Shown: piece after piece, positions 8,317-50,182 of the stretch
How positions within the stretch are numbered: position 1 is the stretch's first letter
Layout: every line of letters begins with the position of its first letter
Source of the DNA: a virus
Taxonomy: Duplodnaviria > Caudoviricetes
DNA: 50,182 bases
Virus record (IMG/VR): IMGVR_UViG_3300028908_000002
Coordinates: 1-50,182 of that record
Strand: one strand, 5' to 3'
Translations under genes and position numbers: made by a program
Notes under the pieces: model-generated
The model's database searches: none
What the model saw: the letters and a program-made list of their open reading frames with translations, nothing else
What the model was told of the DNA's origin: nothing

Positions 8317-8917
8317 TCTGATCCTTTAATCGCTTATAATGTAACCATATGCGTTTCACATAGGTTACTGTCTCCTTGCTCCTTCTACCCGTTACCTTAG
8401 ACAGATACAGTCGTACAATAGCCCACTTCGTGGACTTAGCCATGTAAATAGCCTTTCGTACATTCCCATACCCTGCATTGTAACAGGCTAATGCCAGTTC
8501 AAACAGGTCTTTCTCGGAGTGAACATGAAAGTTCCTCCATAGTAACCTGCATAGATACCTCATATATTTCAACTGTGCATCTACGGCACTACGTGGATTA
8601 TACGGTGTACCTCTGAAGTGCAACTTAGTCTTGCCCCATCTCCATGTGCTTGGCATGAATTGACATAATCCTACTGCTCCAGCCTTACTTACACAAGTTG
8701 GGTCAAACAGGCTTTCCTGATACGCCTGTGCTTTAAATTTCATGGGATCACAGGGTGGTAACTGTTGTTTCGTACTTGCTATCCAATGCTTGTCATACCC
8801 CTTGTATGTCAACGGTTTTCTGTTCGGGTAATGGACATCTAACCAATTACCAAAAACCGATGACGATGATAACAACAATAGCAATAATATTGATAGCATA
8901 CCATTTATACCAAACAT
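8138..8917 (-). CDS. Endolysin, SLT lytic transglycosylase with N-terminal signal/anchor
   Basis: Motifs QES (catalytic E), GAVGLCQFMPSTW, ACYNAGYGNV and ETVTYV. AAGGAGGT RBS precedes ATG 8917; hydrophobic N-terminus. Confidence 0.92.
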   Translation of the reverse strand: MFGINGMLSILLLLLLSSSSVFGNWLDVHYPNRKPLTYKGYDKHWIASTKQQLPPCDPMKFKAQAYQESLFDPTCVSKAGAVGLCQFMPSTWRWGKTKLHFRGTPYNPRSAVDAQLKYMRYLCRLLWRNFHVHSEKDLFELALACYNAGYGNVRKAIYMAKSTKWAIVRLYLSKVTGRRSKETVTYVKRIWLHYKRLKDQNEVKRIYRGSTYIGYYTPSERSCRRVSYQEVLQSIRAKGEDDSTIRCQSDSYSRRVKQG

Positions 8918-20480: not shown

Positions 20481-20509
20481 ATTTTATCTAAATCGGTTTG
20501 ATTTGTCAA
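20481..20509 (-). promoter_or_regulatory. Sigma70 promoter of the virion operon
   Basis: Minus strand TTGACA-17 nt-TAAAAT. Confidence 0.75.
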
Positions 20510-20723
20510 GTACTTTTGATTTCCCCTTTAAGGTAAAATGATAAAACGCTTGACAATCGAGTTTTTAAAGCCTTATATATAAATAGGTATAGAATGAGCG
20601 TATTTTAACTTGATTTTTAGGTGGTAATTTGGGTTAAATGAGTGCAAAATCGGCTTCAAAATCGATTGATTTAGGGCTGAAATCTCGATATAATGAGCTA
20701 AAATTTTGATGAAAGGAATGAAA

Positions 20724-21138: not shown

Positions 21139-22845
21139 GTGGACAGGGCTACGCTTAAAGCGTTGTTTCCATTAGCTGACTTGGACATATTCTACAGAGA
21201 GCCTTCATCTGATGTAGAATTAGCTGAACGCTACTTGCCTAACAAACTGTGGCGTATGAATGTGTTGTATAAGATTAAGAATAAGTCGGGACGAGTTGTG
21301 CGCTTTGTTCTTAACGATGCACAGTTAAAGGTGTATAAGGAGTTGTTATCGCACCCTCGTTTGATTATATTGAAGAGTAGGCAGCGTGGTATATCCACAT
21401 TCATGCTGATATGCTACTTTGACGATGCACTAATTGAGGGTGTCATTGAAGCGGGTATGATGGCACAAGGTGAGAAGGAAATGGAGAACTTGTTTGACAA
21501 GGTTAAGCTGTTATGGCGTGAGCTTGATGACAGTGTGCTCCGCTTCTTATCCTTGCACACTGTCAAGGACACTACAAAAGCCTTTGAGTGGAATAACTTG
21601 AGTAAAATGTACTTACAGTTGTCCTTTAGATCGGGTACACTACAACGCTTCCATGTATCGGAGTATGCAAAGATAAGTAAAAGGTACCCCGAAAGGGCTA
21701 AGGAGACACGATCTGGTAGCTTACAAGCCATTCTACCTACAAAGGACAACTTAGTTGTAATTGAAAGTACGGCAGAGGGTGATAATGACTTCAAGCGTAT
21801 GTGGGATGGAGCGTGTGAGCTTGATGATAAAGAGAGGTCATATAATGACTTTAAACCAGTGTTTCTGTCGTGGTTGGACGATCCTGACTGTGTACTTAGT
21901 GTACCACAGCGTGATACACCTATCAGTGAAGCCTACTTCAAGCGTATGGCTGAACGATTAAAAGCCTTATTCAATTTGGGTGATAGGTTCGCTAAACAGT
22001 TGTGCGATGCGTCGGGTAATGTCAAGGTGCTTGATGTTCAACGCTGGTGGTGGATTGCCAAGTTGCGTGAGATGGACAATGACATGGAGTTAATGTTGAG
22101 GGAGTATCCTGCATATCCAGAGGAAGCCTTCTATTTGAGTATAGAGGGTGTGTGGTATAAGGACTTGTACGAGTATCTGTACAGTAACAATAGGTTCTCG
22201 CTTGACTTTGAGCTTATGTACGATGATACTATGCCCGTTGCTGTGGCATTTGACTTAGGCGTAGACGATAACACAGTGTTGTTGTATAGTCAATATACGG
22301 ACTTTCGTATTAACATGTTAGACATATCAATAGACTCAGGGCGTGATATAGTTAGCTATTGCAAGGAGATAAAAGGTAAAGCCTTAATAGAGGGGTGGAC
22401 GATTGGGTTACTTATACTTCCACACGATGCACGGAACAGGCACATCTCTTCAAATAAGACTGTGTATGACATAGTAGTTGAACACTTCCCTGACGCTATT
22501 GTCCATGTAGTTGAGAGGGCTGGTGTTTTAGCTGATCAAATTAAAGAGGTGCGTCGAGTTGGTAAATCCTTCTATTTGAGTGAGCGGTGTGATGTTGTTA
22601 AAGGCATGTTTCAAAACTACCGTATGAAGGTTGACGCTAACGGTATGCCTACGGGCAAAGATGTACACGATGAATGGTCTCATATAGCTGATGCAGTTAG
22701 ATACCTATCTCAAGTGGTTGATAGTGGCTATTATGCTTCCGTAGCCACAACTCTACATAGTTTGAGGGTGGCGGCTATGATGTCTCATTACAGTATAGAC
22801 GAGGAGCGTGAGTACGACACTATATATGATGGCTTATCTCTTTAA
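21139..22845 (+). CDS. terL: Terminase large subunit
   Basis: Walker A ILKSRQRGIST, Walker B HVSEYA, coupling motif ESTAEG, nuclease motifs AFDLGVDD and SHIADAVRY. Confidence 0.95.
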   Translation: MDRATLKALFPLADLDIFYREPSSDVELAERYLPNKLWRMNVLYKIKNKSGRVVRFVLNDAQLKVYKELLSHPRLIILKSRQRGISTFMLICYFDDALIEGVIEAGMMAQGEKEMENLFDKVKLLWRELDDSVLRFLSLHTVKDTTKAFEWNNLSKMYLQLSFRSGTLQRFHVSEYAKISKRYPERAKETRSGSLQAILPTKDNLVVIESTAEGDNDFKRMWDGACELDDKERSYNDFKPVFLSWLDDPDCVLSVPQRDTPISEAYFKRMAERLKALFNLGDRFAKQLCDASGNVKVLDVQRWWWIAKLREMDNDMELMLREYPAYPEEAFYLSIEGVWYKDLYEYLYSNNRFSLDFELMYDDTMPVAVAFDLGVDDNTVLLYSQYTDFRINMLDISIDSGRDIVSYCKEIKGKALIEGWTIGLLILPHDARNRHISSNKTVYDIVVEHFPDAIVHVVERAGVLADQIKEVRRVGKSFYLSERCDVVKGMFQNYRMKVDANGMPTGKDVHDEWSHIADAVRYLSQVVDSGYYASVATTLHSLRVAAMMSHYSIDEEREYDTIYDGLSL

Positions 22846-22888
22846 GCTTCTATTGTAGTGTGGTACGCTCACATGAAACACTGAACAT

Positions 22889-23882
22889 GCTCCTGCTACG
22901 CAGTCGCTGATTATGTTGTGTAGAAGCAGTTACTCCGTAACTACTCCTACACAATGAAAACTTAAGCTTTGCTTAACTACAAACGCTACACTACTAAAAA
23001 TTTAAGCTTCAGTTAAGAATTAATCTAACCTTAACAAAAACGCTCCTGCTACGCAGTCGCTAATTAAGTTGTGTAGAACACTCCTGCTACGCAGAAGTGT
23101 ACTACACAATAAAAACTTAAATCTGCCTTACATAAAGGCTTTCTCTTTCTAAAATTTAAGCTTAATTTAAGTTTTAATCAAATCTTAAACCAATCTTAAA
23201 TCGTATTTTACCTCTTAACCTAATCGTTAAGAGGTAAAATACGGAGTGTACCACAGAACTTATACATTCAACATTACATCGTATGCTATGTAAACTTATT
23301 TCAAACTTAATTATTTTAACAATGAAAAGCCTCTTCGTGGGCGCAAAGCGTTACACACTCACAGTAAACGCTCCTGCTACGCAGTCGCTGATTATGTTGT
23401 GTATAAGCAGTTACTTCGTAACTACTCATACACAATGAAAACTTAATCTAACCTTAACCCATTCTACACCTAAAAATTTAAGCTTCAGTTAAGAATTAAT
23501 CTAACCTTAAACCGATCTTAAACCGTATTTTACCCCTTAACTTAAGGGTTAAGGGGTAAAATACGGAGTGTACCACAGCACTTACACACTAAATATTGCA
23601 TTGTATGCTATGTTAAACGCTCCTGCTTCGCAGTCGCTGATTAAGTTGTGTATGAGTAGTTACTTCGTAACTACTCGTACACAAGGAAAACTAAAATTAA
23701 CCTTAACCCATTCTGCTCCCAAAAATTTAAGCTTAATTTAAGCTTTAATCAAACCTTAAACCAATCTTAAATCGTATTTTACCCCTTAACCTAATCGTTA
23801 AGGGGTAAAATACGGAGTGTACCACAGCACTTACACACTAAATATTGCATTGTACAACATGTAAACTAAAATTAACCTTAAG
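22889..23882 (-). repeat. Array of four composite hairpin units (candidate ssDNA element or ncRNA array)
   Basis: GCTCCTGCTWCGCAGTCGCT starts at 22889, 23042, 23370 and 23619. 42-44 bp palindromes lie at 23202-23243, 23523-23566 and 23773-23814. Confidence 0.92.
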
Positions 23883-24464
23883 CGTTTTAGAGCTAAAAGC
23901 CTTCAGTGGGTGGTGTTAGGGCGCGAACCCCTACCCTCCTTTGCCCCACCCCCTCCCCCTCACTCCTCACGCTCCACTCTTCGCACACAATACATTAGTC
24001 CGTTGCACACACGCCATTTTCAGCCGTTGCACATCGTCGCACATGACAGGAACACGGAGTAAAGAGACGCTTTAACCATCGCACATACAGCTAAAACGAG
24101 CATATTACATCATGTTATGTTAACACGGTGTGCGGGATTTTAAGCGATTTTATAGCCTTACCCTTAAAATGACCCATTTTTTACCAGTTTTTCGCTCTCC
24201 GTTCGATTTAGAGCCATTTTTGAGCGAAATTTTTAGATTTTTGGAGTGAAAAAGTGAAATAGGTGGCAATCAAAACCAAATAAAATTAAAAATATTTAAT
24301 AATTAAAGATATTTAACTTTTACAGTGCGCATTGTAAAATAAAGCCTCGTTTATGTTTAGTGATGTGGTGTCAGGGTGTCAAAATTCGAGTGTGCCACAG
24401 ACGGAAATTGCAGGGAGTGGAGTTTTAACGGAACTCCAAAAGTGAAAAAAATCCCAATTTTGGT

Positions 24465-24885
24465 ACGGTAACTTTTACGGGTAATTTTTTATCGGGGAAA
24501 TTGTTACTCGTTTAAAAGCCTAAATTTAGGTATTATCTTATATAGTAACAATTTAACTTTAATATTTAGCATATATATATAAAAGGAAAAATATTGGTTT
24601 AAGGAAATTTTAAGTTTAAGGAAAATTTAAGTTTTAAAATTTAAGCTTTTTCCGTTTAAGTTTTATTATTATTATTATTATTATTGAAAAAAAAAGTTTG
24701 AAAAATTACTTGCTAAAAAGTTACCCGACCAAAAATTTTAAGCCCTAAATCCAGGGTTTCGGAGCGTAACAGGTAACTTTTAACCAAAAATAAAAAGTTA
24801 CGGCACCAAACCTTAAACAGTTACCGCCCCTCAAAAGCCCCAAATTTCGGGCGGTAACAAATTAAGCGTTTTGTTACCCACCCCG
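24465..24885. other. Candidate replication origin
   Basis: About ten GTAAC/GTTAC motifs in both orientations flank a very AT-rich core (~24535-24710). Confidence 0.55.
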
Positions 24886-25182
24886 AAACTTAAACGGCTT
24901 CACTGCTAAAGCAAACTCGATGCTCCGAGTGTACCACACAAATATTTTACACCCGTAAGCCCAATCGACTCAAGCGTATATAAGATGACAGACCACAAAG
25001 AAAGGCTTTTAACACGGTGTACAAAGTGATTTTTCGTTTAAGGTTTCTCCGTGTCATGCCGTTTTGAAGGGGGGTAAAATCGATACACAAAGCCAAAACA
25101 GATGTATTGTACATAAAGCGCAGGAATACACAAAGCCCTTTACCCTACTGTATCGAAGGATTTACACGGTGTACAATGCTTG

Positions 25183-25286
25183 TTTACCCTTATATACCAC
25201 AATTCTAAGCATATAATGCCGTGTTCACCCTTACATACTACAATTTTTACACTGTACGATGTCCGTTTACCCTTACATACTACAAT
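25183..25286 (+). repeat. Three 21-bp repeats TTYACCCTTAYATACYACAAT at 41-42 bp period
   Basis: Copies at 25183, 25224 and 25266; partial copy at 25139. Confidence 0.75.
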
Positions 25287-25670
25287 CAAAAGAGCATACC
25301 ACAGTTAAAATTTTGTACCACACAAATAAACCACCCAAAAACGCCAAATTTTTAACGCCAAAATTTAAAATGCACTCCAAGCACATGACATCCCACACTC
25401 ATAAGTAAACTTAATTTTACCTTGTCAAGCCAAATTGCGACATTGATTTGTATTCCTACAACGCTACATTTTAAACTAAAATTTAAGCCCATTTTATATA
25501 TTATATGTTTATACAATGCACCTTAAACACATGACATCACACAAAAATTGACAGAAAACGCAAACTTTTTAGAAAGAAGGCTTTTATTTAAGCGTGTATT
25601 AAGGTTAATTGTACTACAATACACTTATCGGTTAAGCAGACAACCGAAACCAAATAGAAAAGGATGCAGA

Positions 25671-26219
25671 ATGCAAGAGTTGAGAGAAATCGTTAAACTA
25701 TGCAAAGGGGTGGGAGTTGAACTACCCAAAGTTAGACAAGGTAAATTAAGCGGCGGCTTTGTCATCGAAAATGTTTTCGTGCAAGATGTCATAGGCGTTC
25801 AAGATGTGATGATCGCCATTTTGGCCGAGAGGTTAAAACACAAATATAATATCAGTTGGACTTTGAAGCCGTCAAACGAAATCACTGATCCAAATTTTCT
25901 TGAAGAAGGCTTATTGTCATTCACGCTACCAAGCGGCGATCACAAGACACTTGAATATGCCGTTGTCGAATGGTCAGACACACAAGATGTGTTGTCAAGC
26001 TATTGGTCAAAGGGCGGAGTTAACTCCGCTGACCCCGATTTTGTCGGGGATCAATGGGATACGCTAATTGAAGTGATATGGCAGTGTTTCAATAGCTGCC
26101 GCCCATATTTGTACGATTTAATACTTGATGAGCTTCATAGGGCGCGTAACTATGAGGTATGTAAGAAGTATAGCGCTTTGAATAATCTTGACAACGATAC
26201 AGTAGAAGAGGAGATTTAA
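25671..26219 (+). CDS. Hypothetical early protein
   Basis: AAAAGGA RBS before ATG 25671; TACAAT -10 box at 25615-25620. Confidence 0.75.
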   Translation: MQELREIVKLCKGVGVELPKVRQGKLSGGFVIENVFVQDVIGVQDVMIAILAERLKHKYNISWTLKPSNEITDPNFLEEGLLSFTLPSGDHKTLEYAVVEWSDTQDVLSSYWSKGGVNSADPDFVGDQWDTLIEVIWQCFNSCRPYLYDLILDELHRARNYEVCKKYSALNNLDNDTVEEEI

Positions 26220-27156: not shown

Positions 27157-27291
27157 GAGGCTTTTTAGGGTACTATTATATAGGAAGGGTTACAGAGTAA
27201 CCGTTTCTATATGGCTATACTACTTTGTAGTATGGCTACTTTGTAGTATTCTTTAAAGGTCTTAGACCTAATTTTAAACAAAGGATCGACT

Positions 27292-29051: not shown

Positions 29052-29061
29052 TCCCACTCTC

Positions 29062-29118
29062 CAATTCTACAATCACATATCAATTCTAATCTCACATATC
29101 AGTCCTAATCTCACACAT
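29062..29118. repeat. Three tandem 19-bp imperfect repeats (CAATTCTAATCTCACATAT)
   Basis: Copies at 29062, 29081 and 29100. Confidence 0.75.
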
Positions 29119-29396
29119 CAATCAATTTACACTGTTTTAATTCTATAATGATAACGATTATTACAATCAACCCAAAGCCCTATTTTAACCTATTTAACTC
29201 TTACAGTTTGAAAAGAAGGCTTTTAAGAGGGGCAAAGCTTAACTAAAAATAGATCATCTCTTAAAATGGCTCTCACGCAATATAAAAATTAAAATAGTTT
29301 AATTTTAGTTGTAAAAGCTTTGAGAATGGATTTTAAGAGATTTTAATTGTATTGTAGTATGGTAATATAAAAGAGAGTATAGCGTACGATAGCGGC

Positions 29397-43162: not shown

Positions 43163-43451
43163 AGATATACATGAGACCCTTAAAGAGAGGGGCAAGACAC
43201 ACGGGGATTTTGAAGAACAGGCACACATTGCACAGATGTTAAAGGACATTATACGTCCTTACATAAGCGGATACACAGACGATAAAAAAGAGGCTTTGGA
43301 TATGACTATGCACAAGATCGCCCGTATATGTGCGGGTGATCCAAACGAAAGAGACCACTGGCACGATATAGCGGGATATTCTACGCTTGTGTGTAAAGTT
43401 ATCGACAGTGATACAATAGTGGGAGACAGTGATGACAGGAAACGGCGATGA
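43155..43451 (+). CDS. DUF6378-like helical protein
   Basis: ERG.THGDF...KEALDM..HKIARI..GDP...DHW.DIAGY; TTG start after GAGGAG. Confidence 0.75.
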   Translation: MNKDIHETLKERGKTHGDFEEQAHIAQMLKDIIRPYISGYTDDKKEALDMTMHKIARICAGDPNERDHWHDIAGYSTLVCKVIDSDTIVGDSDDRKRR

Positions 43452-43951
43452 TACCTAAAGCCTTAATCACATCGGACAAGGGTGCTACGGGAGATGAGCG
43501 GTACACACCTGCGTATGCCGTGCGCCCATTGTTACCTTACCTGCCACAAGGTTGGCGGTACTATGAGCCTACGGCTGGTAAAAGCCAGAGTATCGTGGAG
43601 GCTTTACAGTCGGTTGGGCTAAAGGTTAAGGCGGGGAATACAGACTTCCTAAGAGCGGGGTTACACCCGTCTATGTATGACTGTATTGTAACAAATCCAC
43701 CTTATAGCATAAAGGATCAGTTCATAGGACACTGTTTCAGAATAGGAAAGCCCTTCGCTTTACTGTTACCTATACCCGCATTGCAGGGTAATGTAAGGGG
43801 TGAAATGTTCAGTGCTGCGGGTGTGGATTTGAGTATCATAGTATTGAACCAGAGGGTGGCGTTTTCAGGCAGCTCCCCACACTTTGGAGTAATGTGGTTG
43901 TGCTACAAGATACCTATGCCACAACTACAATTTGTAAATATCGTTAAGTAA
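43448..43951 (+). CDS. Small DNA amino-methyltransferase (m6A/m4C)
   Basis: DERYTP, YEPTAG (motif I), DFL, IVTNPPYS and FALLLP. Confidence 0.88.
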   Translation: MIPKALITSDKGATGDERYTPAYAVRPLLPYLPQGWRYYEPTAGKSQSIVEALQSVGLKVKAGNTDFLRAGLHPSMYDCIVTNPPYSIKDQFIGHCFRIGKPFALLLPIPALQGNVRGEMFSAAGVDLSIIVLNQRVAFSGSSPHFGVMWLCYKIPMPQLQFVNIVK

Positions 43952-45622: not shown

Positions 45623-45961
45623 CTACACTATAATCTCACGGGCTTCAAAGCTCAACGCTATACTTTGCGGTACATATAAACTACCGTACTTCACTACAAA
45701 CATGAAACGATTAAAATCCTCTATTGTAGCTTTCTTTTGATAACCACCCTTAAAACCCTCGTGATAAGCCTCTCTATGGCAGTCTCGGCATAGCGTTATA
45801 AGGTTACTCTCTTCATATCTCAATAAAGGGAAGTACTTACCACTATTCAAATGATGTACTTCTAAATCCATACTATTACCACACACGGCACAGAAAGGCT
45901 CTCTCCTTATGTGAGCCTCTCTTGTTCTATGCCACTCTTTACTGTTGTGCCATGAACTCAT
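45623..45961 (-). CDS. HNH endonuclease
   Basis: CAVCG...LEVHH...NLITLCRDCH; ATGA-coupled start at MSSWHNS. Confidence 0.9.
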   Translation of the reverse strand: MSSWHNSKEWHRTREAHIRREPFCAVCGNSMDLEVHHLNSGKYFPLLRYEESNLITLCRDCHREAYHEGFKGGYQKKATIEDFNRFMFVVKYGSLYVPQSIALSFEAREIIV

Positions 45962-48900
45962 AATGTATCGCCTTGTACATTTGGGATATAATCCCATATT
46001 GTGTTAAGGTCTGGATACCCGTCTTCCTGTATAATCCTTCTCATGTCATAGGGTGTAATGGTAACTTTGCCATCGCTCTGCTTTTGCACCTGTTTAGCTA
46101 AAGAGTCAAGTATGCTAAACTCCTTCTGCCCGTGTACATAGCGCCACATGTAGTTATAGCCACTATCCGTATTGAGTACCGCACTCAAATTGTCTAACAC
46201 CTTAGATGCAGATGTAGCGGCATCAGCTTCACGCATACCGGAGTCCTTCAACAGTTTAGTCAGTATAGCGTGTTGTTCTCCCGTGTTACCCTTCACAACT
46301 GCATCAATACACGCAGGGGCTTGTTTTGATCTAAAGAACTCATGTAGCACCGCCTGTCCTGTTGAAGACACACCCGTTTCACTGTTTAATATGTGCGTGT
46401 GCCATATTGGGCTGTACGATCTAACTACTCCCTCTTCAGCGTCTATCGCATGGCGTATGCCCTCTATGATCCGCTTCTTTACCTGTGTGGTCTTAGCGGC
46501 ACCCTTTGCCGCAGCGATAGCTTCATCGTGCAAGTCTATCGTTATAATGCCGTCTTTAAAACTCGTACTACCACCGCTTGGCGTAGATGTAAACTCTACC
46601 TTCAAATCTTTGAGATTTGGATATACATCTGTTAATTCCCTATTTAAGCCTACTATATCACTAAGCGAAATAGGGGCTTTATTGACTTGTGTCTCAAGTG
46701 CCGCACCTGTCTGCTTCAATGTAAACTGCGCGTCAGGTATCACTACACGAGGCACACCACCTGCAACCATTGTACGAGTAGCGGAAGGCTTTATGTTGTA
46801 TGACAATTTAACAAACTCATTCTGCACTGGTGGTTGAGCAGAGTAGTTAATCGCCTTCTCCATCCACTCTGACAATTTACCACTAAGGTGTTGCATCGTC
46901 TTTCCGTAATTGTCAGCGTGTACAGCGAACACTGCGGGTGGTAAGTCAGCGGGATCACCGCCGTCTAACACTTTCTCAATTTGCTCACTTGTCTTAGGTG
47001 TTATAAGGGTCTCACTTAGTAGTTGTGCGTGTGTTTGCAAAGCCTTTATCTCATCGGTGAACTTTGCATAACCCTTCACCGTGCCGTAGTGTGGCATAGC
47101 TATATCACTGAATACAGACTTAACCTCTTCTGGGTGATTGGTCAAGACCTTAATAGTGTCAGACAGAGTTCTCAACTCTCTACCCCTGTGAGTGTAAGGT
47201 ACTATGTGTTTGTAGAAAGCGTTAGTTACACCTCTCCATATCTCTGTTGTAACGGCTGATGCGTCGCCCTTTAACTTAGCCTTGCCCCTATTAATCCCCG
47301 TGCCGAATAGGTCAGATAGGCTTTTCACATAGTCGCCCATTACTTTACCGACTTCAGTCTTAGGTAGCGCAGAACTGCCGTAAATCCTCTCTAACATCTC
47401 AAAATTGGGTAACAGTACACTATCAAGTCCGTCGGGTGTCATAGAGGCTTTCTGGAACATACCTCGTAGCACCGCCCTGTCAAACAGCTCCCTTGTTTGT
47501 GGCGCAAGGAGTTGGGTTATAGCGTCAGTTTGTGCATAGTCTGTTTTACTATACACCTGCGCCAATAGGTTGTATATATCCTTGTCAGACATCTTACTGT
47601 TTAAAGCCTTGACTAAATCGGCTTCAGAGGTGATAGTGTGTCTTCTGTACATATCGTTCAACTGTTTGTAGCCCACTAAGTCTTCCTCGTCTAAGAAGGC
47701 TTCCATGTACTTGTCTATTCTACTCTTAGCCTGTTTAATCACCGGACTTGTTACCTCGTCTGATAGACCGTTCAACTCTTTCCTTAGAGACATTAAGTCG
47801 CCCAACTTTAGCGTGATGACATTAGAGTCATCGGGAGACATTCTATTAAGGATTTTACTTATATTCATCAGTGTTGCACTCTCTACTGCATCCGCTTTGG
47901 ATGCCATGCCCACCGTTTTTAAGCTATCCTCTATCGCTGATCCTAAGTCGCCTAACAGTTCATCTTTACCTGTTACTAACTGTTGATCACTGTACTTGAA
48001 CTTTAAGCCCTTCTCGAACATACCCCATGTATCCCGTGCCACTTGTACCAATCCCGATGTAGGTGTCTTGTTTACCGCTTTAGGATCAGTCAAGCCCTTT
48101 AACTCTTTCATAATATAACGGGCTAAGTCGTCATGATTGAAGGCTGTCTGTAAAGCCTCTGTGTCAAGTCCGTCAGTTTTAGATAGACGGTCAAACATCT
48201 GTTGCATTAGCTTGTCCGTCATATTGTCTAACACTGACGCTGACGATAGACTGTCAAGTCTATACACTTCACCCAACATCGAACGCCCTGTTGGCGTACC
48301 GAACATTGCGGCTAACATTCTCTCCTGTGGCGTGTTGGGTGTTCTACCTGTAACTTCTTTCCACGACTTAGATAGGTTAGCCCACTCGGGAGACTTTAAC
48401 CACGCATCCGTACTCTTGTAATCCTTAAACTCAGGATTTAGTGTACGCATCATGTTGTTAAATGTGATGTTGTACTTCCTATCAGCTAAGGCTTTACCTA
48501 TCGCAGGTAGTGTGGTAGTTAAACCATAGTGCAAAAGCCTTCCTCCAATGGCTGAAATAAGTGCGTCCTCTGCCGCTGTGCCTGAACTTACATTCTCACC
48601 CTTTCGTATTACATACTCCGTAGCACCCATTTTAGCCATGAGCTTAGCTGAACCTGTTGATAGCATGGGCAGCTTACCCGCTATGTTAGTCGGCATAGCT
48701 GCCATTACTATTGCGTCGCCTAATGTCTCCCTGCTCCAGAAGCCAGATTTCTCACCTACCTTTGTACCTGTAAGGTTTTGCTGTATGATCTGCCTGTCCT
48801 TCTCAATCTGCACCCTCTCTTGATCGGATAGGAGGCTTAAGCCCACTGTGTCAAGTACATCATCAGCTATATTGACGAGTCCTATGCCCAACTTCAATAG

Positions 48901-49266
48901 CCCATTAGCACCCGTTTTAGCTAATACACCTACATCACCCATCAGTGTACCATTTAGCATAGGACTGTCGCCCTTCACTGCATCAGACATGGCGATAAAG
49001 TTCTTCAACAGGTGATCATTACTGTCCACCATGTCCGTGTGGCGCTTATTGGTATGTGGCACTGCGGAAGAACCATTAGGCTTTCCCGCAGCTTTAGCTA
49101 TGTTGTTTAAATTAGCGTTGGTCTGATACAGTTTAGTATCTTCCTCTGCCACTACTTCCGATGCCCATTGTGTGTCTATCTCATCAGGATAGACTGTTGC
49201 TGTTGATGTGGACTGTGTACCACTGTTAAGTGCCTCATCAGCCCAGTTCAAGTCTATATCTGGCAT
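45958..49266 (-). CDS. Large internal virion/ejection protein with degenerate zincin-like domain (1102 aa)
   Basis: Large helical protein downstream of the portal; C-terminal L.D....EL..VYP.L..L.V.F...I.I.L...RHAIDAEEG segment. Confidence 0.6.
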   Translation of the reverse strand: MPDIDLNWADEALNSGTQSTSTATVYPDEIDTQWASEVVAEEDTKLYQTNANLNNIAKAAGKPNGSSAVPHTNKRHTDMVDSNDHLLKNFIAMSDAVKGDSPMLNGTLMGDVGVLAKTGANGLLKLGIGLVNIADDVLDTVGLSLLSDQERVQIEKDRQIIQQNLTGTKVGEKSGFWSRETLGDAIVMAAMPTNIAGKLPMLSTGSAKLMAKMGATEYVIRKGENVSSGTAAEDALISAIGGRLLHYGLTTTLPAIGKALADRKYNITFNNMMRTLNPEFKDYKSTDAWLKSPEWANLSKSWKEVTGRTPNTPQERMLAAMFGTPTGRSMLGEVYRLDSLSSASVLDNMTDKLMQQMFDRLSKTDGLDTEALQTAFNHDDLARYIMKELKGLTDPKAVNKTPTSGLVQVARDTWGMFEKGLKFKYSDQQLVTGKDELLGDLGSAIEDSLKTVGMASKADAVESATLMNISKILNRMSPDDSNVITLKLGDLMSLRKELNGLSDEVTSPVIKQAKSRIDKYMEAFLDEEDLVGYKQLNDMYRRHTITSEADLVKALNSKMSDKDIYNLLAQVYSKTDYAQTDAITQLLAPQTRELFDRAVLRGMFQKASMTPDGLDSVLLPNFEMLERIYGSSALPKTEVGKVMGDYVKSLSDLFGTGINRGKAKLKGDASAVTTEIWRGVTNAFYKHIVPYTHRGRELRTLSDTIKVLTNHPEEVKSVFSDIAMPHYGTVKGYAKFTDEIKALQTHAQLLSETLITPKTSEQIEKVLDGGDPADLPPAVFAVHADNYGKTMQHLSGKLSEWMEKAINYSAQPPVQNEFVKLSYNIKPSATRTMVAGGVPRVVIPDAQFTLKQTGAALETQVNKAPISLSDIVGLNRELTDVYPNLKDLKVEFTSTPSGGSTSFKDGIITIDLHDEAIAAAKGAAKTTQVKKRIIEGIRHAIDAEEGVVRSYSPIWHTHILNSETGVSSTGQAVLHEFFRSKQAPACIDAVVKGNTGEQHAILTKLLKDSGMREADAATSASKVLDNLSAVLNTDSGYNYMWRYVHGQKEFSILDSLAKQVQKQSDGKVTITPYDMRRIIQEDGYPDLNTIWDYIPNVQGDTL

Positions 49267-50182
49267 TATCTATCTCCTTGATTGTAGCCCTGCGGTGCTA
49301 AGTCAGATGTAGCACCCAAAGCCTCTGCTAATTGTCCTGCCGCACCGTTTACATTACCCAACACGCCTGTTTGATTTGTCATTGCAGCTCGTGGGTCTAA
49401 GGTCGGCATATAGCCCATTTGCATAGCTAAGTTGCCGTATATCTGTGCAATCTCTTCACTATGCTTAGTTTTCAAGTTCTTCAACTTCAATGACATGGCG
49501 TAGAAGTATGCGGCAGGATTTGCGTTCATGAGTGCCTGTCCTGCCATGCCGTTCAATAATTGATCTAACATAACGGCATCTACGCTTTCAGACCCATTCA
49601 TGTCGGATGTGAATATCTCAACATCCGCCTGTAATTCGTCAAGCCCCGTGCCGCCGTATGTTTTATATCTAACTATACCGTCTTTACCTTTTATCGTGTG
49701 TGGTACATATTGCACTGTATCACCGACATTCATGCGCAGCACTTCTGGCTGATTGACTTCAATCTGGGCTTGTTGATTGAACTCATCAGTTAAAGTTATG
49801 TACTCGTGTGCGTTCTTGTACACTGATGCTAAGTGCATAATGTCTAACACTACATACTTATTCCACCTCTTCAAATGTGTGTCGAGGCGTGTTAAGCTGT
49901 TGATTGCTGCGTTCTGTTGTAAGCCTACTTTTCTACCGCTTGATGACGCATCGCCAAATCCAAGAAAAGCGGGATTTAGCCCTAACACTTCAAACATAGC
50001 TTGATTGGAGAATACGATCTTCTCCTTCTGTGTTTGAGCTTGTGGCTGTAAATTGTGTATCATAATACCGTTTACATTGTTCACATACGCCACTTGGTTA
50101 GGTGTGTACAGTGCATCGTTAAACTCTCGCTTGTGTTGTTGTCCTACTGAACCCTCTTGGGCTATTACTTTAAAGCCATTCA
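49266..50182 (-). CDS. Portal protein, C-terminal part
   Basis: In frame with 1..1118 across the overlap; GLNPAFLG....SSGR.V..QQ.A pattern of P22-type portals. Confidence 0.85.
   Translation of the reverse strand, partial: NGFKVIAQEGSVGQQHKREFNDALYTPNQVAYVNNVNGIMIHNLQPQAQTQKEKIVFSNQAMFEVLGLNPAFLGFGDASSSGRKVGLQQNAAINSLTRLDTHLKRWNKYVVLDIMHLASVYKNAHEYITLTDEFNQQAQIEVNQPEVLRMNVGDTVQYVPHTIKGKDGIVRYKTYGGTGLDELQADVEIFTSDMNGSESVDAVMLDQLLNGMAGQALMNANPAAYFYAMSLKLKNLKTKHSEEIAQIYGNLAMQMGYMPTLDPRAAMTNQTGVLGNVNGAAGQLAEALGATSDLAPQGYNQGDR
50056..50182. repeat. Terminal 127-bp direct repeat (copy 2)
   Basis: Identical to 1-127. Confidence 0.95.

Follow-up and report, generated by a model that had tools for sequence, protein, structure and literature searches.

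We examined the complete virus record IMGVR_UViG_3300028908_000002 (Duplodnaviria; Caudoviricetes), a window of 50,182 bp, and in it an array of four tandem hairpin cassettes that stands in the non-coding DNA directly after terL, the gene for the terminase large subunit (TerL). The differences between the units support the conclusion that the cassettes are constrained for pairing rather than for sequence, and hairpin A of each, judged by its defining heptamer, is a GCGNAGC DNA mini-hairpin on the minus strand. From its sequence the array would be a cis-acting DNA element in the main control region of this genome rather than a gene, and it is probably not an RNA. We tentatively read it as a set of strand-specific initiation signals on single-stranded DNA (ssDNA), resembling single-strand initiation (ssi) signals, in a replication or end-duplication zone. 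The interpretation offered in an earlier note on this DNA is supported in part, and the uses that it listed (priming, packaging, end processing, decoying of host defence proteins) are candidates only. The general kind of region is familiar, a cis region rich in repeats and palindromes that separates late from early genes; the structures found here are unusual and well constrained.

The four units start at 22889, 23042, 23370 and 23619, with start-to-start distances of 153, 328 and 249 bp, and the first begins 44 bp past the terL stop codon, at the start of a 2.8-kb non-coding region. The earlier note had given the same four starts and the last period of 249 bp, and a scan for the 19-mer of hairpin A bears them out: allowing up to 3 mismatches it finds four copies, all on the plus strand and none elsewhere, with 0 expected from 100 shuffles. 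Every unit combines a TTAA tract with the 19-nt hairpin A and the long hairpin B, to which units 2-4 add a palindrome C with perfect arms of 18, 19 and 18 bp and a spacer of 6 nt, just as the note had described. Unit 1 has neither C nor the 13-nt box GAGTGTACCACAG, which follows directly after each C and is fully invariant. The three C palindromes are the three longest perfect hairpins of the genome, in which a scan for stems of at least 9 bp with loops of 3-8 nt returned 17 rows, or about 11 distinct hairpins; 20 shuffles gave 1.25 on average. The 11-bp phasing that the note had seen in the TTAA tracts is also present, as twelve 11-nt spacings of CTTAA or TTAAG in the position lists. Each tract forms in addition an imperfect hairpin, D, not described there. 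Read on the minus strand, a full unit runs in the order box, C, D, B, A and is paired over nearly all of its length. The parts of the array are as follows.

22889..22907, minus strand: hairpin A1, with the GCGTAGC mini-hairpin core and tandem G.A
22916..22954, minus strand: hairpin B1, 18 pairs, with a GGA loop on the minus strand
22994..23040, minus strand: TTAA tract and weak hairpin D1, at the end of unit 1
23042..23060, minus strand: hairpin A2
23069..23109, minus strand: hairpin B2, its top swapped for an A-like core and still pairing
23125..23149, plus strand: intrinsic-terminator-like site with a 5-bp stem and T-rich tail, the sole one in the array and in unit 2 only
23150..23201, minus strand: TTAA tract and hairpin D2 (DNA energy -9.2 on the minus strand, -6.6 on the plus)
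23202..23243, no strand assigned: palindrome C2, with 18-bp perfect arms and a 6-nt spacer
23244..23256, plus strand: box GAGTGTACCACAG after C2
23370..23388, minus strand: hairpin A3
23397..23435, minus strand: hairpin B3
23470..23523, minus strand: TTAA tract and hairpin D3
23523..23566, no strand assigned: palindrome C3, with 19-bp perfect arms
23566..23578, plus strand: box GAGTGTACCACAG after C3
23619..23637, minus strand: hairpin A4, with a GCGAAGC core
23646..23684, no strand assigned: hairpin B4, the sole B copy that folds better on the plus strand
23721..23772, minus strand: TTAA tract and hairpin D4 (DNA energy -11.2 on the minus strand, -5.6 on the plus)
23773..23814, no strand assigned: palindrome C4, with 18-bp perfect arms
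23815..23827, plus strand: box GAGTGTACCACAG after C4

Units 3 and 4 are 90% identical across 249 bp and represent a tandem duplication. Conservation within the array is highest in the box and in hairpin A, where 18 of 19 columns are invariant; the spacers have drifted to 72-86% identity. The predicted folding of the whole array lies far below that of shuffled sequence (20 shuffles per strand), the z score being -17.7 for the minus and -14.3 for the plus strand. A coding repeat was considered, the 249-bp period being divisible by 3, and was rejected, as only open reading frames (ORFs) of 51 and 57 aa cross the units.

Pairing persists through changes of sequence in both long structures. The C stem reads CCTCTT/AAGAGG in unit 2 and CCCCTT/AAGGGG in units 3 and 4, a double change from T-A to C-G. 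In B, units 1 and 2 carry TTGTGTAG/CTACACAA and unit 3 carries TTGTGTAT/ATACACAA, where G-C has become T-A; unit 4, with TTGTGTAT/GTACACAA, has a T.G pair on the plus strand. The earlier note had recorded these exchanges and had also seen that the top of B in unit 2 was replaced and still paired, and the replacement proves to be a copy of the core of A set inside a new stem. When A and B are aligned on the minus strand, 97.9% of the 97 cells are paired, six pairs have changed on both sides, and the resulting covariation score is reached by 0 of 500 shuffles. Five of the six doubly changed pairs stem from the single swap in B2, and the independent compensatory events number about two in B and one in C.

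The loops of A and B follow one rule on one strand, as the earlier note had held: all eight read c-GNA-g on the minus strand (GTA, GGA or GAA), and all three substitution events in them fall at the middle base. On that strand A has the form GC-GA-CTGC-GNA-GCAG-GA-GC, with tandem G.A where the plus strand has T.C and C.T. The array holds five GCGNAGC heptamers, all on the minus strand, four in A and one in the top of B2; GCGTAGC occurs in three copies of A and once in B2, and GCGAAGC in A of unit 4. Across the whole window the heptamer is not enriched (17 copies against 12.1 +/- 3.6 expected). In the available part of the source, GCGNAGC is described as two G-C pairs and a sheared G.A pair closing a one-base turn, the mini-hairpin of Hirao and colleagues, whose stability as DNA is extraordinary; the stability rule for c-GNA-g triloops applies to DNA and not to RNA (PMC13037366). 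Folding energies are also better on the minus strand, for A in all four units, for B in three of four and for D in all four. Among the seven non-Watson-Crick cells of B, five become G.T on the minus strand and one on the plus strand, which agrees with the note's statement that most B mismatches do so, the cells of B1 and B3 being common by descent.

We favour the reading of the array as ssi-like signals because of the known roles of such mini-hairpins, the tandem modules on one strand, the phased boxes with nearby G+C-rich and A+T-rich stretches, and the possession by this phage of its own primase-helicase. Mini-hairpins of the GCGNAGC type are reported, in the portion of PMC13037366 available to us, at the primase start of phage G4, in ssiA of RSF1010, where the primase is RepB', and in the early promoters of phage N4, and are said there to bind single-stranded DNA-binding protein (SSB) poorly and to resist exonuclease. 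The G4 complementary-strand origin and the oriV sites ssiA and ssiB of RSF1010 share with the array strand-specific hairpins of the c-GNA-g or GCGNAGC type, which in those systems are read by primase (PMC13037366, available part). The setting is likewise similar: repeats resembling iterons lie alongside the hairpins, as do stretches rich in G+C and in A+T, and the phage encodes a primase-helicase. The resemblance that was compared is one of structure: there is no sequence likeness to G4 or RSF1010, the array has four tandem copies on one strand where those have one site or two opposed sites, and each of its units has four hairpins. An iteron-type origin would be expected to have helically phased direct repeats beside an A+T-rich unwinding stretch and near the replication genes; the pentamers here are phased at 11 bp, 84-88% A+T is reached at 24550-24700, the early and replication genes start at 25671, and another candidate origin lies at 29052-29396. 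The near-invariance of A, at 18 of 19 columns, fits a sequence-specific recognition site.

Under this reading, a phage protein would bind the phased TTAAG/CTTAA boxes, a motif common to the relatives, and unwinding or strand displacement would leave the minus strand single-stranded. Each unit could then fold on that strand into four consecutive hairpins, C-D-B-A, whose c-GNA-g mini-hairpins at the tips of A and B, being resistant to nuclease and SSB, would stay folded. The folded hairpins may serve as ssi-like signals for loading or priming by the phage's own primase-helicase, and priming on the minus strand would drive synthesis rightward, in the direction of the A+T-rich stretch and early genes. 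This might take place in an origin zone of replication or, equally, in duplicating a terminal repeat as concatemers are processed. If a terminal repeat of about 0.5 kb at roughly 24.1-24.65 kb is real, priming could copy it in concatemer processing; for T7, the accessible part of one source gives a hairpin intermediate that holds the terminal repeat, with primase-initiated synthesis, as a proposal (PMC4281155). A bolder form of the idea, in which each cassette is a self-contained ssDNA start module of a new family, its mini-hairpin and long guide hairpin read on the minus strand, we regard as doubtful. In that doubtful form the reading enzyme, an unrecognised phage product, would be the orphan primase-helicase or an undetected polymerase, giving hairpin-dependent initiation of DNA or RNA at four tandem sites in a podovirus that is not N4-like.

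Several points count against the ssi-like reading. DNA palindromes can covary without selection, through template switching. The strand bias is weakly founded because the unit copies are related by descent and few events are independent: B4 and the outermost pair of C2/C4 favour the plus strand, and the tally of about five independent G.T-on-minus events against two G.T-on-plus events (B4 and the base of C2/C4) is not significant. The minus-strand preference asserted by the earlier note is supported by the folding energies and is weaker than stated there; we grade it as likely but not established. RSF1010 has two opposed ssi sites, against four same-strand copies here. In the nearest related genome the equivalent non-coding region contains 0 c-GNA-g hairpins, and a covariance model of B plus A gave no hit in 10 loci from related phages. 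The primase-helicase has 0 matches in the PDB, and neither PDB nor NCBIfam searches gave a hit for its type of primase. A second candidate replication origin, plausible from its sequence, lies at 29052-29396, an intergenic stretch beside the primase-helicase gene with three direct repeats (TCTAATCTCACATATCA-like) and an A+T-rich palindrome.

The closest cultured phages form a Kafunavirus-like group comprising Edwardsiella phage KF-1, Pseudoalteromonas phage PH1, Vibrio phage VPMS1 and Dickeya phage Amaethon, which share 37-38% identity with the window in TerL and about 30% in the head protein. They have a common layout with it, in which head genes run leftward and terS-terL rightward, followed by a non-coding gap and small early genes running rightward. 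Locus searches based on TerL found nearest relatives at only 47-50% identity. The nearest genome (L007/G001; TerL 47% identity) has at this position 1.9 kb of non-coding DNA with repeats of other kinds, in which CTTAA/TTAAG is enriched roughly 6-9x and short motifs such as AAAATTTAAGCTT are shared with the window. The post-terL DNA of another relative, L013, opens with CTTAA-rich sequence. In each of the four related lineages examined, an array of repeats lies in the non-coding sequence that follows terL, and no two of these arrays are alike in sequence: PH1 (L018 7616-8160) has three 58-bp tandem repeats from the terL stop and then iterons (GGACGTCT-like, period about 8 bp) over roughly 340 bp; KF-1 has a 33-bp repeat twice near the end of terL and an 83-bp repeat three times about 1.4 kb further on; L011 and L012 have a 29-bp repeat three times and a 70-bp repeat three to four times; and L007 has many short repeats. 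On these comparisons the place after terL is a position-conserved, fast-evolving, repeat-bearing cis region, and the hairpin cassettes are this lineage's own version of it. The earlier note had held that a lack of the structure in relatives would speak against its proposal. The lack is there in form, and it weakens the reading only a little, because the nearest relatives share 47-50% TerL identity and keep other arrays at the same place.

The least improbable of the rival explanations, though still rather unlikely, is that the array serves packaging or end processing, as an assembly site for the small terminase subunit (TerS) or a structured flank of a terminal repeat, on duplex or cruciform DNA; the TTAAG boxes would bend or wrap the DNA, and the palindromes would be nicking or fold-back sites in concatemer cutting, as proposed for T7. 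Its position only 44 bp past the terL stop suggests as much, and so do the repeat arrays of differing sequence after terL in all four lineages and the adjoining of terS-terL to the early region, which is like a T7-type concatemer junction. For T7 a hairpin intermediate containing the terminal repeat is cited in the accessible part of PMC4281155. The depth of Logan contigs from one run reaches 78.8 (23825-24542) and 63 (24513-25012), where the flanks have 47.6-51.5, as might be seen if a terminal repeat of about 0.5 kb lay at some 24.12-24.65 kb, just to the right of the array. A co-occurring strain sharing the stretch would explain this depth as well, the fit uses two free parameters for two numbers, and contigs cannot show ends. 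A protein site on duplex DNA needs neither compensatory changes nor stems that tolerate G.T, and we know of no mini-hairpin in any pac or cos site. The available portions of the literature on KF-1-like phages yielded no statement on genome termini. We consider it unlikely that the units are tandem small-RNA genes or elements of RNA processing or stability. In that case each unit would yield a transcript some 200 nt long, with the minus strand as its likeliest source, that carries the hairpins C, D, B and A and works as a regulator or protein sponge. Nearly the whole unit is paired, the G.U-tolerant stems favour the minus strand, where B1-B3 have RNA energies of -22.7 to -24.9 (plus strand: -13.8 to -20.9), and three of the four A copies are followed on that strand by G and 3-5 T. 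By eye, weak sigma70-like sequences (TTTACA/TTAACA-N17-TTTAGT/TTGAAT) stand upstream of each C on the minus strand; the promoter scan gives none scoring at least 9/12 in units 3 and 4 and one plus-strand site in unit 2, and in the putative -10 the key A at position 2 is missing. None of the hairpins A, B and C has a proper U-run, no Rfam family matches, a minus-strand transcript would enter the 3' end of terL, and c-GNA-g is a stability rule of DNA, not RNA (PMC13037366, available part).

A neutral or selfish palindromic repeat, tandemly duplicated and with its pairing kept by hairpin-templated repair during replication, would need no function of its own. The recent 249-bp duplication that produced units 3 and 4, with 90% identity, agrees with this view, as does the absence of the cassettes from all relatives examined and public collections searched. 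We think it quite improbable, given that A (18 of 19 columns) and the fully invariant box stand out from spacers at 72-86% identity, that all three loop changes hit the middle base only, that the B2 swap made a new paired stem, and that the units carry the TTAAG motif which is concentrated here in the relatives too. Least probable of all, and by our estimate very improbable, are promoters of the N4 type, in which A would be extruded on the template (minus) strand and read by a virion or early phage RNA polymerase for rightward transcription. GCGTAGC and GCGAAGC do lie on the would-be template strand for transcription in the early direction. As described in the accessible parts of PMC4496689 and PMC13037366, the early promoters of N4 are three hairpins on the template strand ahead of its early genes, with a stem of 5-7 bp, a loop of 3 nt and a G+C-rich heptamer of the type GCGGAGC or GCGAAGC. 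Both systems have several small G+C-rich hairpins with a 3-nt G-N-A loop on one strand of non-coding DNA ahead of early genes; the stem of A is contiguous for 4 bp before the tandem G.A and a further 2 bp, and N4 has nothing that corresponds to B, D, C or the box. The part of PMC4496689 available to us states that a purine is needed at the centre of the loop, where three of the four A copies have T and one has A. The units have no ORFs between them, and the late genes are served by sigma70-type promoters. No RNA polymerase, virion-borne or otherwise, was detected by PHROGs or Pfam, and a 1102-aa orphan protein has no detectable polymerase kin in searches of PDB sequences, the Atlas, and collections of 5.8 billion and 1.8 billion proteins. 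None of the five largest proteins has motif B or C of T7/N4 by regular expression, and the AlphaFold2 (AF2) model of the 1102-aa protein is all-helical with a predicted local distance difference test (pLDDT) score of 38. Two AF2 models were of low confidence (pLDDT 49.5 and 38), and the polymerase negative would miss a highly diverged enzyme. The tips do follow the rule for very stable DNA mini-hairpins on one strand, as the earlier note had held; the likeness to N4 drawn there is not borne out by an RNA polymerase.

Hairpin-dependent initiation on ssDNA is known from few systems, namely G4-type origins, RSF1010 ssi sites and N4 promoters. If the ssi-like reading is true, the array would be a new, compact and repeated example in an ordinary double-stranded DNA podovirus, with a candidate enzyme in the orphan primase-helicase. 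The cassettes also mark the post-terL stretch of the little-studied Kafunavirus-like lineage as a position-conserved, fast-evolving cis-acting region. If the array is only a packaging flank or a neutral palindrome array, it is a well-documented curiosity in one metagenomic genome.

Short-repeat arrays are also present at the concatemer junction of T7, and the origins of lactococcal phages and P4 have direct and inverted repeats. The array resembles these in its direct repeats and palindromes and lies in a non-coding stretch between late and early genes; theirs are short iterons, whereas ours are multi-hairpin cassettes of 150-330 bp with covarying stems and mini-hairpin tips. REP/BIME sequences and the hairpin ends of the IS200/IS605 type (PATEs) are imperfect, strand-specific hairpins that act as ssDNA. 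The array differs from them in being clustered rather than dispersed, all four A and three C copies lying within one kilobase, and no transposase was seen among the window genes by PHROGs or Pfam.

The earlier note had not recognised the array as a described family, and the searches agree. Distant-mode blastn of the cassette against 50,697 phage records gave no match, and three cassette patterns found 0 copies in viral contigs. No Rfam family matched at its gathering score anywhere in the window; at E up to 10 over 22800-25700 there were 12 sub-threshold matches, mostly to hairpins of microRNA precursors, the best at 24.3 bits against a gathering score of 88. Within the window the covariance model of B plus A recovered the four units as well as their mirror images on the plus strand and, beyond these, only a single weak B-like hairpin (27170-27238). 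This last lies on the plus strand between early genes, has a GGTTAC-AGA-GTAACC core and scores 25.5 bits. A scan of bacterial genomes, 596 Gb in all, with the A core returned 62 single matches, near chance by estimate, and none extends into a B-like hairpin; the genome of the host may lie outside the bacterial collection scanned. The 19-nt A core is also multi-copy in three unrelated metagenome-assembled genomes, with three copies in a Clostridiales genome (L069, L072, L075), four in Chitinophagaceae (L030, L057, L061, L062) and two in Muribaculaceae (L043, L044), the flanks being peculiar to each family; these may reflect convergence on a stable hairpin, or chance.

Other candidates were set aside. 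A dispersed REP or MITE element was rejected, as all A and C copies lie within 22889-23814, the viral pattern hits number 0, and the 62 bacterial singletons have no extended likeness. Intrinsic terminators were rejected, the scan calling a single site (23125-23149, plus strand, unit 2) and none of A, B or C; so were strong sigma70 promoters, with one promoter-like site in the array, in unit 2 on the plus strand. Readings as CRISPR-like, attC-like, protelomerase or retron elements were dropped for want of any defining feature.

The window comprises an entire podovirus genome from a circular assembly. Its two ends overlap exactly by 127 bp as a direct repeat (1-127 = 50056-50182), an assembler artefact of circular assembly that leaves a unique circle of about 50,055 bp, and the portal ORF spans the window ends. 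Misassembly of the repeats, which the earlier note had raised, finds no support: 12 contigs of one public run, all with at least 99% identity, show no other letters, gaps or joints across the stretch, the run being possibly the source sample and so not independent support. It is a DNA run, kept as contigs, and the sole public run to contain the stretch; no RNA run was listed as containing it. PHROGs and Pfam identify structural and lysis genes (portal, major head protein, SU10-like adaptor, ejection proteins, an endolysin-like protein and a spanin) and genes of replication and DNA metabolism (DNA polymerase A, an 899-aa primase-helicase, ligase, helicase, exonuclease, methyltransferase and HNH endonuclease). 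The primase-helicase matches the PHROG for DNA primase and Pfam DUF5906, and it has a homologue in L007 at 32% identity. TerL is 37% identical to that of Pseudoalteromonas phage PH1 and others by tblastn. NCBIfam gave 0 families for nine window proteins, the early proteins, TerS (138 aa) and the primase type being sought; the 182-aa first early protein has no match in the Atlas, and a 311-aa early protein found no relatives in viral contigs. Clear sigma70-type promoters flank the late genes at 20481-20509 and 20666-20694 in the promoter scan. The early and replication genes begin at 25671. The neighbouring features are listed below.

21139..22845, plus strand: terL (568 aa), which closes the late genes ahead of the non-coding region and matches PHROG phrog_2, terminase large subunit, at E 1.9e-17
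22846..25670, no strand assigned: non-coding control region of 2.8 kb from terL to the first early gene, with no ORF of at least 60 aa
22859..22868, minus strand: TACCACA box in inverted orientation (GCGTACCACA), a little to the left of unit 1
23900..23990, plus strand: C-rich, G+C-rich tract past the array, with an L007 look-alike at 8478-8535 seen by eye and not found by blastn
24550..24700, no strand assigned: the part of the region richest in A+T (84-88%), containing phased TTAAG and (ATT)n
25671..26219, plus strand: first early gene, 182 aa from its ATG, with a leader conserved with L007

The non-coding region is 6-7x denser in CTTAA/TTAAG than the rest of the genome and 11x denser in TACCACA, the core of box GAGTGTACCACAG. 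It holds 8 of the genome's 20 TACCACA copies (22859-25322), seven on the plus strand and one inverted, and the longer form GAGTGT(A/G)CCACA occurs also at 24388 and 24927. For DnaA boxes of the E. coli type, the window has 0 copies of TTATCCACA and the non-coding region one relaxed match. Within the most A+T-rich stretch, an (ATT)n microsatellite is followed by an A-run at 24660-24690, and in read placement 24648-24697 was flagged as a skipped repeat. Three tandem repeats of 41/42 bp at 25160-25286 each end in TAC(C/T)ACAAT, and TGTACTACAAT, as at the ends of those repeats, recurs about 60 nt before the first early ATG, in the leader conserved with L007. These are candidate early promoters of a non-consensus type.

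Two further observations concern the genome at large. The 1102-aa orphan protein, encoded at 45958-49266 on the minus strand directly after the portal gene, is probably an internal protein of the virion or an ejection protein; among 1.8 billion representatives a single distant relative turned up. GTACAC/GTGTAC is present in 66 copies genome-wide, against about 24.5 expected for a random hexamer with both strands counted, and the same genome has a DNA methyltransferase gene at 43448-43951.

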